Shown piece after piece: positions 12,304 to 21,720 of a DNA stretch of 64,000 nt. Location of the stretch: sequence record LT603033. One strand, 5' to 3'. The notes beneath the pieces were generated by a model. It was not told where the DNA came from. It saw only the letters and a list, made by a program, of their open reading frames with translations, and did not search any database. The position numbers and the translations under genes are program-made. Each line of letters opens with the position of its first letter. Position 1 is the stretch's first letter. This DNA is from Escherichia phage vB_Eco_slurp01.

Positions 12304-12512
12304 ATGATTATATATGATTCAGTACTGATTAGTATAGACAAGATTGCTCAAGAATGCACGGAAATGTGTGTGAATGATTCAGTACTGATTAGTATAGACA
12401 AGATTGCTCAAGAATGCACGGAAATGTGTGTGAATGATTCAGTACTGATTAGTATAGACAAGATTGCTCAAGAATGCACGGAAATGTGTGTGAATGATTC
12501 AGTACTGATATG
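12304..12512. repeat. Tandem direct repeat, 60-bp unit x ~3.5
   Basis: Unit GAATGATTCAGTACTGATTAGTATAGACAAGATTGCTCAAGAATGCACGGAAATGTGTGT repeated head-to-tail. Confidence 0.9.
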
Positions 12513-12656
12513 CCACTAAGTAGGCAGAGGAAGTCTGCCGTACTTTGTAGTTTCCAAGCTCCTTTTCCATTTTGCAAATTACATCAAATGTAATCAAAAG
12601 TAATCACGCAATGATTAGTACTGAATTATTACTTTCACCTTAATTACAATTACCCT

Positions 12657-12674: not shown

Positions 12675-12885
12675 ATTCAATTACCCCTTGAGGCTCCAGC
12701 AAAAAGTTGGTTAGTACTCCATCCTAAATCTCGATCCTAAAAATTTTGGAGTACCTATGAAATAAAAGTTGGATCTTCGAAAGTTGAAATTTACGTTGGG
12801 ACGTTTATGATTTGTGGGATATAATGATGTTTGTAGTCGGGTAGTTCTCAAGAATATCAGTACTGAATAATGAAAGAAAGCTATT

Positions 12886-12913
12886 GACATTATGATTCAG
12901 TACTGTATAATGT
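12886..12913 (+). promoter_or_regulatory. Sigma70-like promoter in non-coding hub
   Basis: TTGACA N16 TATAAT; no convincing ORF downstream. Confidence 0.5.
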
Positions 12914-14259: not shown

Positions 14260-14272
14260 GTTTTACATCGAG

Positions 14273-14291
14273 AGCGGGAACACTTCCCGCT
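14273..14291 (+). other. Promoter-proximal hairpin (AGCGGGAA-CAC-TTCCCGCT)
   Basis: 8-bp stem immediately downstream of predicted start site; member of the recurrent hairpin class. Confidence 0.6.
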
Positions 14292-14691: not shown

Positions 14692-14719
14692 TTGCAAACT
14701 ATGTTTAATGGCGTATAAT
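14692..14719 (+). promoter_or_regulatory. Early promoter
   Basis: TTGCAA N16 TATAAT; hairpin GTGGGGAA-TAG-TTCCCCAC at 14732-14750. Confidence 0.7.
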
Positions 14720-14770
14720 GTTTTACATCAGGTGGGGAATAGTTCCCCACTATATAAGAGGATTAAAAAA

Positions 14771-15010
14771 ATGGCTAAATCAAAAATGTTCTTAGGTCAC
14801 AAAAACAAAACTCATTGGAATGTAAGCCTTTGGATTAATAACGATGAATCATTATACCGGTTGGCCCTGGACTTTATTGCCGCCAATACTAATCGCAATG
14901 ATGCGGCCCGTCATATGATGTTATTTTTAGAACAGACTGGACAAGATAAAACACCGGACGGATTCAAATATAGCACTACTGCGATCCGTGCGGCAATGGT
15001 TGGAATGTAA
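14771..15010 (+). CDS. Hypothetical early protein (79 aa)
   Basis: ORF 14708..15010 trimmed to ATG after AAGAGGA RBS. Confidence 0.7.
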   Translation: MAKSKMFLGHKNKTHWNVSLWINNDESLYRLALDFIAANTNRNDAARHMMLFLEQTGQDKTPDGFKYSTTAIRAAMVGM

Positions 15011-15744: not shown

Positions 15745-15925
15745 ATTCATTGGCAGATAAGCCGTAGCCCATAGGGTGCGGGAGTGTATCTATAGAAAAA
15801 GTAGTTTATTACAGTTACAATTGTGCACCCGGTGGGTTAGCTGTTGTCATGGGGTATATTATGCCAGTACTGGATAGTGCTGTCAATACCTTTTTACTAT
15901 TCAGTACTGAAAACTATTTTTAAAA
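15745..15925 (+). ncRNA. Candidate small non-coding RNA
   Basis: Promoter-driven, no ORF; contains inverted copies of the CCCAYNGGGTGC motif that could pair. Confidence 0.3.
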
Positions 15926-15930
15926 AGTAC

Positions 15931-15958
15931 TTGCAAACTATGTTTAAAGGCGTATAAT
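15931..15958 (+). promoter_or_regulatory. Early promoter (upstream member of a tandem pair)
   Basis: TTGCAA N16 TATAAT. Confidence 0.7.
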
Positions 15959-15965
15959 GTTTTAC

Positions 15966-16040
15966 ATCAGGACGGGGAACGAAATAAGTAACTCCCCATT
16001 AAGTAGCCCAGGAGTAAGGCACACGAAAAACTCCCCTGAT
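15966..16040 (+). other. Conserved ~75-nt structured leader element (copy 1 of 3)
   Basis: ATCAGG...CCTGAT closing helix plus internal GGGGA/TCCCC stem-loop; near-identical copy at 25361-25433, related copy at 18275-18385. Confidence 0.5.
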
Positions 16041-16047
16041 AAAATAG

Positions 16048-16076
16048 TTTGAAAATTGTTTTTAAAAGCGTATAAT
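16048..16076 (+). promoter_or_regulatory. Second promoter of tandem pair
   Basis: TTTGAA N17 TATAAT. Confidence 0.5.
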
Positions 16077-16108
16077 ACTTACATCAACTACTGAATGAGG
16101 GTTACAAA

Positions 16109-16720
16109 ATGAAAACTATCACTACTACTACTTTCGTTATGGATTTTTCTGAATTGAACGCAGAACAAAAAACGTCAGCTATCGAACTGGTTCGGGAACG
16201 TGAAAAAAACTCAAACGACAATTATTTTTCTGAAAGTGAAATTGAATACTATAAAGAAACAGTACTACCGGAATATGGCATTAATGACGCTGAAATACAA
16301 TTCAGTGGTTTTTGGTCCCAGGGTGACGGTGCATCAATCAGTACTGACCACGTTGACGCAGTGAAGTTTTTACGCAAGGTAAGAGCATTAACTAAGTATC
16401 GCTCAATCCGTCACCTGCTGAATGAAGATGATTTGGCGATGAGTGTAAAGCGTTCTCACTCTCACTACTCGCATGAGAACACTGTAAGCGGGTACATTGA
16501 ATCGGCTTACACTGATTTAACCGCAAAACAAGAAACGTTAGTTAATGAGCTTGAGGAACTACTCACTGAAACTATTCGTGAATTGTCACGCAAGTTGTAC
16601 CGTGATTTAGAGAATGCATATGAGGATCAATTCACTACTGAAAACATCGTAGCACTGATTGAGGGTAACGAGTATCAATTCAATGTTATTGATGGCGTAG
16701 TAGAATCAATCGAATATTAA
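16109..16720 (+). CDS. Hypothetical acidic protein (203 aa)
   Basis: ORF track; GAGGG RBS. Confidence 0.75.
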   Translation: MKTITTTTFVMDFSELNAEQKTSAIELVREREKNSNDNYFSESEIEYYKETVLPEYGINDAEIQFSGFWSQGDGASISTDHVDAVKFLRKVRALTKYRSIRHLLNEDDLAMSVKRSHSHYSHENTVSGYIESAYTDLTAKQETLVNELEELLTETIRELSRKLYRDLENAYEDQFTTENIVALIEGNEYQFNVIDGVVESIEY

Positions 16721-18167: not shown

Positions 18168-18196
18168 AGCCCACCTTAAACAGTGGGCTTTTTTGT
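18168..18196 (+). terminator. Intrinsic terminator
   Basis: AGCCCAC-CTTAAACA-GTGGGCT + TTTTTT; identical copy at 18894. Confidence 0.8.
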
Positions 18197-18238
18197 TTTG
18201 TAGTACTGCATACTTTAAAAATAGTTTTAAAAAAGTAG

Positions 18239-18266
18239 TTGACATTACCACAAAAAGGCGTAGAAT
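18239..18266 (+). promoter_or_regulatory. Early promoter with long structured leader
   Basis: TTGACA N16 TAGAAT; ~110-nt leader 18275-18385 related to 15966 element. Confidence 0.65.
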
Positions 18267-18389
18267 GTATTACATCAAGACGGGGAGCACTAAGTAGACC
18301 GCCAGTAAGTCGAACGAAAAACTGGACACGTCGATAAAACTTTGATACACTAATAAACGTAAACTAAACTTTAATTGAGGATTTATAAA

Positions 18390-18872
18390 ATGGCTAATGT
18401 AAAATCATTCCTGAAAGCACTGATTTCAAACGATACTGTTATTGCTGCTGAATTGCTGGCTGAACTGGATAACGATACAATGAAAGCGGTACGCAACAAT
18501 TTTAACATTGCGTACAGTGAAGCTAAAGAACTGCAAGCCAAAAAGGTAGCAGAACTGGAAGAACAGAAAAAAGCCCGTGAAGCAGAACTACAAGCAACAA
18601 TTGAAAGTATTCAGGCGGCAGTGTCTGGATTGGATCTGGAAGTGGTTGTAGAAATGGCACATAAAGCCCTGGCGGTTAAGTACGGTGAAGATAAGCCGGA
18701 ATCTAAACCTAAAAAATGGATTCAAGAACGTGTTACTGTAGTACTTGATAACGGTGAAGAACATTTGATTCCTGTACGCGGTAACTGCATTGCGGTAGTA
18801 CTGGACGCTATCAAAGAAAGCGGTATGACTCGCGAGGAATGGATCGAAGCTCATCGCAAAGTTGAAGCATAA
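18390..18872 (+). CDS. Hypothetical protein with predicted coiled-coil N-terminal half (160 aa)
   Basis: ORF 18375..18872 trimmed to MANVKSF after GAGGA RBS. Confidence 0.7.
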   Translation: MANVKSFLKALISNDTVIAAELLAELDNDTMKAVRNNFNIAYSEAKELQAKKVAELEEQKKAREAELQATIESIQAAVSGLDLEVVVEMAHKALAVKYGEDKPESKPKKWIQERVTVVLDNGEEHLIPVRGNCIAVVLDAIKESGMTREEWIEAHRKVEA

Positions 18873-18893: not shown

Positions 18894-18921
18894 AGCCCAC
18901 CTTAAACAGTGGGCTTTTTTG
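18894..18921 (+). terminator. Intrinsic terminator (duplicate of 18168)
   Basis: Same hairpin + T-run. Confidence 0.8.
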
Positions 18922-19074
18922 TGTCTATAGTATTCCAGTCCACTAGCACCGCCTAGAATCGATTCTAACGCATTAAACTGATTATCTGATACATCGCCCT
19001 AGCTGGTGGCGTTAAGGTCGTTAGAAAGCGATTGAGAGTGTTTAAAGTATTTTGCAAAAAGTAATAAAAAGTAC

Positions 19075-21162: not shown

Positions 21163-21212
21163 AGTTTACATGAAGGGGAGAAATGATTCTCCCCAAGAAC
21201 AGGAGAAATAAA

Positions 21213-21589: not shown

Positions 21590-21595
21590 AAAAAG

Positions 21596-21720
21596 TGGTT
21601 GACTTCGGTCAGCCATTTTGCTATTATATATTCATTGAGAGATAGCTCACTAGCCCACAGGGTGCAGGAGTGTATCTATTGTATAATGTTTGAGTACTGA
21701 AAACTATTTTTAAAAAAGTA
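21596..21720 (+). repeat. Repeated intergenic module (hairpin overlapping TTGACT-N17-TATTAT promoter + CCCACAGGGTGC motif), copy 1
   Basis: Other copies at 25196-25320, 28463-28600, 30726-30870. Confidence 0.7.

Follow-up and report, generated by a model that had tools for sequence, protein, structure and literature searches.

This analysis identifies a widespread, uncatalogued family of leader RNAs, predicted from comparative sequence evidence to be pseudoknotted, within virulent phages of Enterobacterales and Aeromonas. Its members are transcribed from the first nucleotides of immediate-early promoters that are recognized by host RNA polymerase (that is, of sigma-70 promoters). The conserved unit is a predicted H-type pseudoknot of ~40 nt, which is closed by a further helix, termed here P0, and the sole thing common to the phages that carry it is the host machinery. 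The favored explanation of its function, to which a probability of roughly 0.38 is assigned, is a putative co-transcriptional action in cis, like that of the put RNA of phage HK022, on the elongation complex or on the fate of the transcript.

Phage T7 is among the best-studied of all phages, and much work on transcription employs T7 A1 templates; the spacer between its early promoters A1 and A2 harbors a predicted, covarying pseudoknot of this family, which is common to jumbo and rV5-like phages and which is absent from Rfam. Synthetic T7 designs may have disturbed this element unknowingly. Whichever functional explanation holds, the family provides a testable handle on immediate-early phage-host conflict.

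Three leader copies within an early promoter array

The DNA analyzed here (termed the window) is a stretch of 64,000 nucleotides from Escherichia phage vB_Eco_slurp01 (record LT603033), within which all features described below lie on the plus strand. The Asteriusvirus jumbo coliphages A4, fEgEco12, PBECO4, phAPEC6 and 121Q are 96-99% identical to it over positions 15800-16300 (Megablast). About 27 near-identical sigma-70 promoters (GTATAATnnTTTACATCR), each followed by a small gene, are arrayed over 12.9-31.3 kb; three of these promoters are followed by the leader, and a simple 5' hairpin comes after almost all of the remaining early promoters of the window. Phage fEgEco12 has direct terminal repeats of 20,993 bp, as determined experimentally (PMC13070987), and comparison with fEgEco12 places the left physical genome end near position 12.4-12.6 kb of the window. 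Hence the whole promoter array and all three leader copies would lie inside a terminal repeat of ~21 kb, with copies 1, 2 and 3 at ~3.4, 5.8 and 12.9 kb, respectively, from the DNA end; three copies per terminal repeat amount to six per virion DNA.

Copy 1 lies behind promoter P1 at 15931-15958 (TTGCAA-16-TATAAT; transcription start at ~15964-15966), and its leader RNA spans 15966-16040. From 5' to 3' this consists of strand P0a (AUCAGG, 15966-15971); an optional hairpin, H1 (15974-15978 paired with 15993-15997); a linker, UAAGUAGCCCA (16000-16010), which includes strand S1a (GCC, 16006-16008); strand H2a (GGAG, 16011-16014); a loop (16015-16030), which includes strand S1b (GGC, 16018-16020) and then ACACGAAAAA (16021-16030); strand H2b (CUCC, 16031-16034); and strand P0b (CCUGAU, 16035-16040). 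A second promoter, P2 (16049-16076; TTGAAA-16-TATAAT), and a gene at 16109-16720 (phrog_5162) follow. No ATG, GTG or TTG, and hence no small open reading frame, can be read within 15966-16040.

Copy 3 is organized in the same way: behind P1 (25326-25353; TTGCAT-16-TATAAT), a promoter of the type also found at 28629 and 31326, the leader RNA (25361-25433) runs from P0a (AUCAGG, 25361-25366) through H1 (ACGGGG, 25367-25372, with CCCCGU, 25387-25392), the linker UAAGUAGUCCA (25393-25403; S1a GUC, 25399-25401), H2a (GGAG, 25404-25407), the loop (25408-25423; S1b GAC, 25411-25413) and H2b (CUCC, 25424-25427) to P0b (CCUGAU, 25428-25433), followed by P2 (25442-25469; TTGACA-16-TATAAT) and a gene at 25503-25778 (phrog_14947). 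Copy 2 is a short form of 62 nt without H1 (18274-18335) behind P1 at 18239-18266 (TTGACA-16-TAGAAT). Its P0 is formed by AUC (18274-18276) and GACG (18279-18282) on the 5' side and by CGUC (18329-18332) and GAU (18333-18335) on the 3' side, and between these lie the linker UAAGUAGACCG (18291-18301; S1a GAC, 18297-18299), H2a (CCAG, 18302-18305), the loop (18306-18321; S1b GUC, 18309-18311) and H2b (CUGG, 18322-18325). A degenerate second promoter, read from the sequence (18342-18370; TTGATA-17-TAAACT), precedes the copy-2 gene (18390-18872; phrog_27871). This cassette is bracketed by two identical intrinsic terminators, one upstream at 18168-18197 (AGCCCACCTTAAACAGTGGGCT plus a T run) and one that closes it at 18894-18923.

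In all three copies the motif starts at about +1 of P1, where start sites are inferred from promoter geometry, and AAAAUAG... comes directly after P0b. Within the window, ATCAGGACGGGGAACGAAA occurs twice and TAAGTAGNCCAGGAGTAAG (with at most three mismatches) three times, where shuffled sequences lead one to expect neither. A covariance model of the core has exactly three matches within the 64 kb (52.6, 47.7 and 47.4 bits; next best 7.6 bits), which, inasmuch as the three copies themselves belong to the model, shows only that a fourth copy is absent. A scan of the window for intrinsic terminators found none at the three copies; a terminator or attenuator was rejected as an identity for the leader, there being no GC-rich hairpin with U run at any copy, as was a tRNA or tmRNA (ARAGORN finds 0 genes in the window).

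A first-pass annotation, made from the letters of this DNA by themselves, had described three repeats, each behind a promoter, and their sequences are as it described them. Copies 1 and 3, for which it gave an identity of ~90%, agree in 66 of 75 columns (88%), counting a 2-nt indel within the internal stem; the second promoter that it saw behind these two copies is also present, in degenerate form, behind copy 2; and the downstream genes, which it called unrelated, belong to three different PHROG families. A common start, ATCAGG(A/G)ACGGGG, and a 3' end able to pair with the 5' ATCAGG, both of which it ascribed to every copy, are borne out for copies 1 and 3, where AUCAGG faces CCUGAU, and this pairing has covarying counterparts elsewhere. 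Copy 2, however, begins ATCAAGACGGGG, the variable base is at position 5, and it lacks the terminal CCCCTGAT, closing instead by pairing of AUC..GACG with CGUC-GAU.

A predicted pseudoknot as the conserved unit

An alignment of 60-odd distinct copies has the architecture P0a - (optional insert) - UAAGUAG-N-C-N(G) - H2a - (N)UAAG-N'-C-..-A-Y-G-A-A-n-A-A - H2b - P0b, in which UAAGUAG is an invariant single strand. In terms of an H-type pseudoknot, this corresponds to a stem S1 of 3 bp, a loop L1 of 1-2 nt, a second stem S2 that is identical to H2, a loop L2 of sequence (A)UAA, and a loop L3 of 10 A-rich nucleotides. H2 has 4-6 bp and encloses a 16-17-nt loop containing A-Y-G-A-A-n-A-A, as is found in all three window copies. 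P0, which pairs the 5' end of the transcript with the sequence just 3' of the pseudoknot, is likewise found in all three; in T7-like phages, however, its 5' strand is the loop of the extra hairpin H1, so that this pairing itself makes a pseudoknot.

The first-pass annotation stressed the internal stem-loop, that is H1. The role of conserved unit falls instead to the predicted pseudoknot, which it had not seen and in which GNC of the linker pairs with GN'C of the loop next to a stem of 4-5 bp. H1 is present in copies 1 and 3, but it is an optional insert that is missing from copy 2 and from many relatives, and it resembles the generic 5' hairpins behind the other early promoters of the window.

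Within copies 1 and 3 and within the copies of LIMEzero-like phages, strands P0b and H2b are contiguous, so that helices P0 and H2 can stack. So stacked, the RNA (~75 nt in all) has a likeness to tRNA that is topological only. The invariant AGUA and GAA are reminiscent, as we see it, of loop-E/sarcin-ricin or UAA/GAN modules.

Covariation and strand specificity

Across 43 distinct cores from all lineages, 97.1% of cells are paired. The middle pair of S1 is A:U in 31 of these, C:G in six, U:A in five and something else in one, with each of the variants found in more than one phage lineage; the window copies by themselves display all three, namely GCC/GGC (C:G) in copy 1, GAC/GUC (A:U) in copy 2 and GUC/GAC (U:A) in copy 3. 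Over the same 43 cores, 95.8% of H2 cells are paired and four of its five pairs have changed on both sides, giving rise to variants such as CCUG/CAGG, CCAG/CUGG, GGAG/CUCC, CUUG/CAAG and GCUUG/CAAGC, sometimes with a G-U or A-U at the base. H2 holds 17 G-U cells, which indicates that the fold is read on the sense RNA rather than on the opposite strand or on duplex DNA.

For 39 distinct T7-like copies, a four-helix model pairs 92.5% of cells, as opposed to 77.7% in shuffled alignments (none of 500 shuffles scored as high), and pairing falls to 13-34% when partner strands are slid against each other. Changes on both sides affect 11 of 18 pairs in this set, including five of the six pairs of the T7-like pseudoknot helix, the loop and partner strands of which vary as GUCAA/UUGAC, GUCAU/AUGAC, GUCAC/GUGAC, GUCGGU/ACCGAC and GAUUAG/CUAAUC; the H1 stem of these phages covaries as well. 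Outside the T7-like phages, P0 occurs as UCAGG/CCUGG (Turkey5), AUCAA/UUGAU (EJP2), GACGG/CCGUC (LTH01) and CGGCG/UGCCG (Munch), and in LIMEzero-like phages as ACCGAA(G)/UUUCGGU and CAACGAAG/UUUCGUUG. For 13 non-T7 representatives, the summed matched-flank score of P0 is 176, a value that was reached in 0 of 5000 permutations.

It is this comparison across phages upon which the structural support rests, inasmuch as the folding energies of single sequences are only mildly better than those of shuffled ones (z of -1.8 to -2.7 for copies 1 and 3 and of +0.2 for copy 2). Searches for the best helix within single sequences likewise returned none that is individually significant, and significance therefore derives only from register-consistent covariation and permutation across lineages. 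When applied to eight close 75-nt copies from Asteriusvirus and Justusliebigvirus, RNAalifold returned the fold of the first-pass annotation with zero covariation, and this fold is thus uninformative alone. The broader claim of that annotation, namely that early transcripts begin with a structured RNA encoded between tandem promoters, fares well: it had named in advance the absence of conserved pairing from related genomes as evidence to the contrary, and the pairing is conserved there. Its reading of the element as cis-regulatory is a putative one, and neither a terminator nor an open reading frame nor a switch can be seen.

The unpaired columns of the core are 95% identical across T7-like copies (flanks, 63-71%), which points to a specific tertiary fold or to a binding surface, and ~20 unpaired nucleotides are invariant and common to unrelated phages.

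These patterns also bear upon the view that the motif has no RNA role at all, being instead a feature of the DNA, such as a spacer or UP element of P2 or a recombination scar of promoter cassettes. Such cassettes do recombine between phages; the A-rich loop sits at the position of an UP element in T7-like phages; and in these phages and in Aeromonas phage MJG the 3' strand of the pairing coincides with TTGACA, the -35 element of the next promoter. Nevertheless, the pairing outlives the loss of this -35 element, as CUAAUC in the copy designated L043 and as ACCGAC in L129, and LIMEzero-like phages have no consensus second promoter, which together imply that selection acts on the RNA pairing itself. 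The spacing between the motif and the next -35 element is, moreover, variable (2 to ~45 nt), and compensatory changes together with G-U pairs are strand-specific signatures of RNA. Covariation thus has largely refuted this view already, and it is hardly credible.

Distribution among phages

A blastn search with the 75-nt leader matches 44 phage records. Among these are the Justusliebigvirus phages outra, muut and EmilieFrey, which have genomes of ~145 kb and belong to a different subfamily; their leaders are 89-92% identical and occur in the same order of promoter, leader and second promoter, with downstream genes that differ from those of the window. As judged from this identity, the leader cassette moves horizontally between Asteriusvirus and Justusliebigvirus. 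Copy 2, used as a blastn query, matches the Salmonella jumbo phages Munch and PHA46, the Erwinia jumbo phage Hallingskeid, LTH01 of the Vequintavirinae and, at nt ~553-587, between early promoters A1 and A2, T7-like Yersinia phages.

A query from one of the latter, phiA1122, matches 584 GenBank records, whose hosts are Escherichia, Klebsiella, Salmonella, Enterobacter, Yersinia, Shigella, Citrobacter, Cronobacter, Serratia, Erwinia, Pantoea and Providencia; among the matches listed of these 584, most are podophages of 37-45 kb, including T7, and a few are jumbo phages of ~350 kb. Pattern scans of IMG/VR added the LIMEzero-like podophages. (A first, over-loose IMG/VR pattern gave 26 chance matches, with phage 121Q as the only true one.) Aeromonas phage MJG, which was outside the set from which the covariance model was built, scores 41.8 bits (E 1e-10) and has a P0 of its own, GUCAAG/CUUGAC.

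In T7 itself, the segment between promoters A1 and A2 (nt ~533-600) reads CCGGGGUCAACCGGAUAAGUAGACAGCCUGAUAAGUCGCACGAAAAACAGGUAUUGAC, and this is the same motif, with core UAAGUAG-GAC-AG-CCUG-AUAAGUC..ACGAAAAA-CAGG. As in the window, the first early transcript carries it in its first ~100 nt, ahead of another sigma-70 promoter; unlike in the window, where the transcript 5' end is used, the strand that pairs with the sequence behind H2 sits within a hairpin loop. The segment is unannotated in the records examined, and no published description of the motif as an RNA element was found in the full-text literature, though older T7 papers may mention it.

Outside of phages, blastn searches of 5,426 complete E. 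coli genomes with the window leader and the T7 version, and of PLSDB plasmids with the T7 version, returned no match. A pattern scan of 185,579 bacterial species genomes yielded only chance matches in unrelated metagenome-assembled genomes and one T7-like contaminant contig.

Genomic context

All copies lie at most ~100 nt downstream of a strong sigma-70 promoter, and no copy comes with its own terminator. A further promoter follows in T7-like phages, MJG, the window copies, Munch, Hallingskeid and LTH01.

Podophage copies are associated with a perfect rrn-type boxA, GCTCTTTAACAATCTG, which occurs within 700 nt downstream of 43 of the 57 copies, always in the order pseudoknot and then boxA; measured from the start of the linker, boxA starts at 54-75 nt in LIMEzero-like and Aeromonas phages and at 138-412 nt in T7-like phages. 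T7-like phages have one copy, usually with boxA downstream, whereas the window has three without it: boxA (GCTCTTTAACAA) follows none of the 17 window or myophage copies, and [CT]GCTCTTTA occurs nowhere in the window.

The copy-2 gene, phrog_27871, has homologues downstream of the leader in Munch and Hallingskeid, so that this leader and its gene constitute a conserved module that extends across genera of jumbo phages; an annotated terminator follows the Munch orthologue as well. Transcription units behind the window copies are short. Searches of the downstream genes against Pfam, NCBIfam and PDB sequences yielded nothing usable, and a single-sequence AlphaFold model of the copy-2 gene product was too poor for a fold search.

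That the copy-2 leader and its gene (phrog_27871/20181) are kept together across genera would be expected if the leader served its own mRNA, either as a 5' stabilizer or in translation control--that is, by blocking RppH and the entry or scanning of RNase E, or by binding a repressor, as does the 5'-end pseudoknot of the T4 gene 32 leader. P0 does sequester the initial nucleotides of the mRNA, and the simple hairpins behind most early promoters suggest that 5' structure is general in these mRNAs. Neither 20 invariant unpaired nucleotides nor a covarying tertiary pair is needed for this purpose, however, and the motif of T7-like phages comes only after a separate hairpin at the 5' end, at ~+45 to +100, and is cut off the 0.3 mRNA by RNase III at site R0.3. 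Downstream genes differ, moreover, and no phage protein is common to all carriers that might act as the repressor. Such a role is accordingly rated as improbable.

Relation to known RNA elements

Rfam 15 has no match to the window at gathering score. When the region 15900-16120 is searched at E up to 10, a single match appears, which is at chance level (17.3 bits versus a threshold of 40), and permissive thresholds retrieve nothing for the corresponding regions of T7, phiA1122, Munch and Hallingskeid. The search of Rfam that the first-pass annotation proposed thus leads to no known family. Three kinds of characterized elements provide comparisons. The leaders are a new family, with strong comparative support for its predicted structure, within a known general kind, the early-leader RNAs of phages.

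Compact H-type pseudoknots that have an A-rich loop, that reside at an mRNA 5' end and that bind specifically are exemplified by the T4 gene 32 mRNA leader and by the preQ1-I and SAM-II riboswitches, the latter two being small aptamers of this architecture. It is conceivable, then, that the leader is a riboswitch-like aptamer by which a small molecule reports the state of the host at infection, and the H-type pseudoknot, backed by covariation, with its A-rich third loop and its conserved unpaired positions, is of the requisite form. Against this, and unlike in the elements just named, an expression platform cannot be seen (a terminator is missing, and the downstream Shine-Dalgarno sequence is left unsequestered), the riboswitch families of Rfam give no match even when E is allowed to reach 10, and the downstream genes are mutually unrelated and non-metabolic; an aptamer is therefore very improbable.

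The nut and rrn leaders provide a second comparison. The rrn operons have tandem promoters, as do these phages, and boxB precedes boxA within their leader; the podophage motif occurs upstream of an rrn-type boxA and so occupies the place of boxB. The window and myophage copies differ in having no boxA, so that a nut/rrn leader is rejected for the window, and the motif is not a short GNRA-like hairpin; no N-like protein is known from T7-like phages.

The third is the put RNA of HK022, a leader of ~70 nt that starts at +3 of promoter PL, has a paired 5' end and contains a triplex, and that acts on host RNA polymerase without requiring a phage protein (PMC9378689). Both put and the present family are structured RNAs (~70 nt for put) that come right after a phage early sigma-70 promoter, with a paired 5' end and a tertiary element. 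They differ in architecture: put consists of two long stems in a V shape, with the triplex in stem I, and the present family of a predicted H-type pseudoknot plus closing helix. The hallmark of put is that it binds the zinc-binding domain of the RNA polymerase beta' subunit and suppresses pausing and termination in cis. A put homologue was rejected as an identity for the leader, which has no similarity to putL; likewise, the covariance model (R1) has no significant match within the HK022 PL/PR region.

Possible functions

According to the favored explanation, the RNA would fold while leaving the polymerase and would then act upon the very elongation complex that made it; alternatively, by the logic of HK022 put or of the nut and rrn leaders, its target in cis may be the fate of its own transcript. 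Polymerase from the first promoter would in this way become resistant to pausing, to Rho or to terminators, and would traverse the downstream promoter or promoters together with the AT-rich early region. A contact surface for a component that all these hosts have, either RNA polymerase itself or an elongation factor, would be provided by the ~20 invariant unpaired nucleotides. This explanation is favored on account of the promoter-proximal position, the lack of a 3' end signal belonging to the leader, the association with boxA in podophages and the precedent of put. If the leader does act on RNA polymerase, put would no longer be alone as an RNA-only modifier of transcription elongation in bacteria, and this second example would be far more widespread than the first. 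Several observations argue against it: there is no boxA at the window and myophage copies, transcription units are short, and there is no similarity to put. Moreover, the terminators around the copy-2 cassette and after the Munch orthologue would sit oddly with a leader that renders polymerase terminator-proof. The bypassing of the leader by a second promoter is no less compatible with P1 serving to produce the RNA itself.

The latter idea underlies the principal competing explanation, namely, that P1 chiefly makes a stable, trans-acting RNA of ~60-75 nt, which serves as a decoy or hijacker of a host RNA-binding protein, RNase or defense sensor. Here the RNA would possibly be cut from the AU-rich 3' sequence by RNase E (or, in T7, by RNase III at R0.3), with the mRNA supplied by P2; it might then accumulate and act in the first minutes of infection. 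Pairing of the 5' and 3' ends within P0 would yield a compact module of tRNA size, in which, for copies 1, 3 and those of LIMEzero-like phages, P0 and H2 can stack. Also in keeping with a trans-acting RNA are the six copies per virion DNA, all with strong promoters; the bypassing of the leader by a second promoter in most lineages; the ~20 invariant unpaired nucleotides in phages that share only their host; and the horizontal mobility of the cassette between Asteriusvirus and Justusliebigvirus (89-92% identity). On the other hand, neither a terminator nor another signal that defines a 3' end lies behind any copy, strict placement next to a promoter is unnecessary for action in trans, and LIMEzero-like phages have a single promoter, which puts the leader on every early mRNA there. 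No partner is known either. On balance a trans-acting RNA is unlikely, although not markedly so, and the same doubt attaches to its processing and to its accumulation. A decoy role, if real, would indicate a host factor whose neutralization at time zero is necessary for very different phages.

A more general proposal, which is put forward tentatively and with less than an even chance of being right, is that these leaders constitute a new, protein-independent class of phage RNA whose binding target, within the first seconds of infection, is host RNA polymerase or some other host factor common to Enterobacterales and Aeromonas, and which has been swapped horizontally, along with the strongest promoters, among T7-, LIMEzero-, rV5- and Rak2-like phages. 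If true, this would explain why transcription from T7 A1 matters beyond its share of promoter strength.

A published dCas9 block of T7 early promoters bears on this point, in that sgRNA A1 caused the strongest delay in lysis (+22%) and 3-fold smaller plaques (PMC11863960) but left the output of an A1-A3 array reporter undiminished (PMC11863960). This result is consistent with a special role of the A1 leader and is also open to interpretation in terms of the order of DNA entry, which is the view of the paper's author, or of ejection being blocked by dCas9. The target of sgRNA A1, TCCCAATCGACACCGGGGTC, ends inside H1, just 5' of the motif, so that A1 transcripts would be stopped before the motif is made.

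Organization and 5' ends of the early transcripts

Nearly all early promoters between 14253 and 31400 of the window have a short GC hairpin behind them, at about +1 to +25, as at 14271-14291, 14731-14751 and 21174-21194. These hairpins, with sequences AGAGCGGGAACACTTCCCGCT and AGGGGAGAAATGATTCTCCCC, precede first the SD and then the ATG, and the early mRNAs look as though they share a common design of the 5' end. The initial transcribed sequence of the T7 A1 promoter (ATCGAGAGGGA) is similar to that of the early promoters in the window (ATCGAGAGCGGGA).

A different element, a perfect 28-nt hairpin (AAAGGGATTGACTCCGGTCAGTCCCTTT; variant AAAGTGGTTGACTTCGGTCAGCCATTTT at 21592) followed by GCTATTATAT, occurs at 21592-21629, 25200-25237 and 30736-30773. 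Because it encloses TTGACT-17-TATTAT with a TG extension, it may constitute either a promoter within a hairpin or a terminator-promoter combination.

The cassette of the short leader form

The promoter, leader and gene of copy 2, the short form of the leader RNA, are flanked by two intrinsic terminators of the same sequence (AGCCCACCTTAAACAGTGGGCT with a T run, at 18168-18189 and 18894-18915), as if the cassette had been inserted or duplicated as one unit. In the protein encoded at 18390-18872, the final 66 residues can be aligned with the DNA-binding domain at the C-terminus of E. coli H-NS; this one pairwise comparison gave 27% identity and E 0.001. A single long helix is predicted for the N-terminal half. 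Conservation does not extend to the H-NS loop TWTGQGRTP, and the AlphaFold model, which is a single-sequence model, is of poor quality. The protein may be H-NS-like or may be an H-NS antagonist. The ribosome-binding regions of copy-2-type genes--aaactaaactttaattgaggatttataaaATG in the window (18355-18392) and ttaaactttaagaggaaatatacaATG in the Salmonella jumbo phage Munch (L033 3125-3160)--are similar to TTAACTTTAAGAAGGAGATATACATATG, the 'epsilon' leader of T7 gene 10.

Comparison with related phages

L001 1560-1680 and L003 1560-1700, the latter from phage muut, share early genes (MAKSKMFLGHKNK..., MRILLTANEIEQ...) with 14713-14800 and 25440-25530 of the window, and the promoter-leader combination ahead of these genes differs between Asteriusvirus and Justusliebigvirus; early-gene cassettes appear to be shuffled via recombination within conserved promoter sequences. 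Set against its relatives, the muut leader copy itself (L003 1501-1573) is longer by one G within the GGGG run and by one C in CUCCCCUGAU, a coordinated indel that would fit an alternative, extended pairing of AUCAGG(AC)GGGG with CCCCUGAU, in competition with the internal hairpin H1 and the pseudoknot helix H2. In the Bacteroidales MAGs L085, L103, L118 and L119, tandem TAAGTAGACAGTAGT repeats located immediately upstream of ATG match the search pattern by chance and bear no relation to the phage motif.

Comparison with the Asteriusvirus phage fEgEco12 places the left boundary of the direct terminal repeat of about 21 kb probably at about 12400-12600 of the window, with a hairpin at 12520-12539 and the first strong promoter at 12884-12911.
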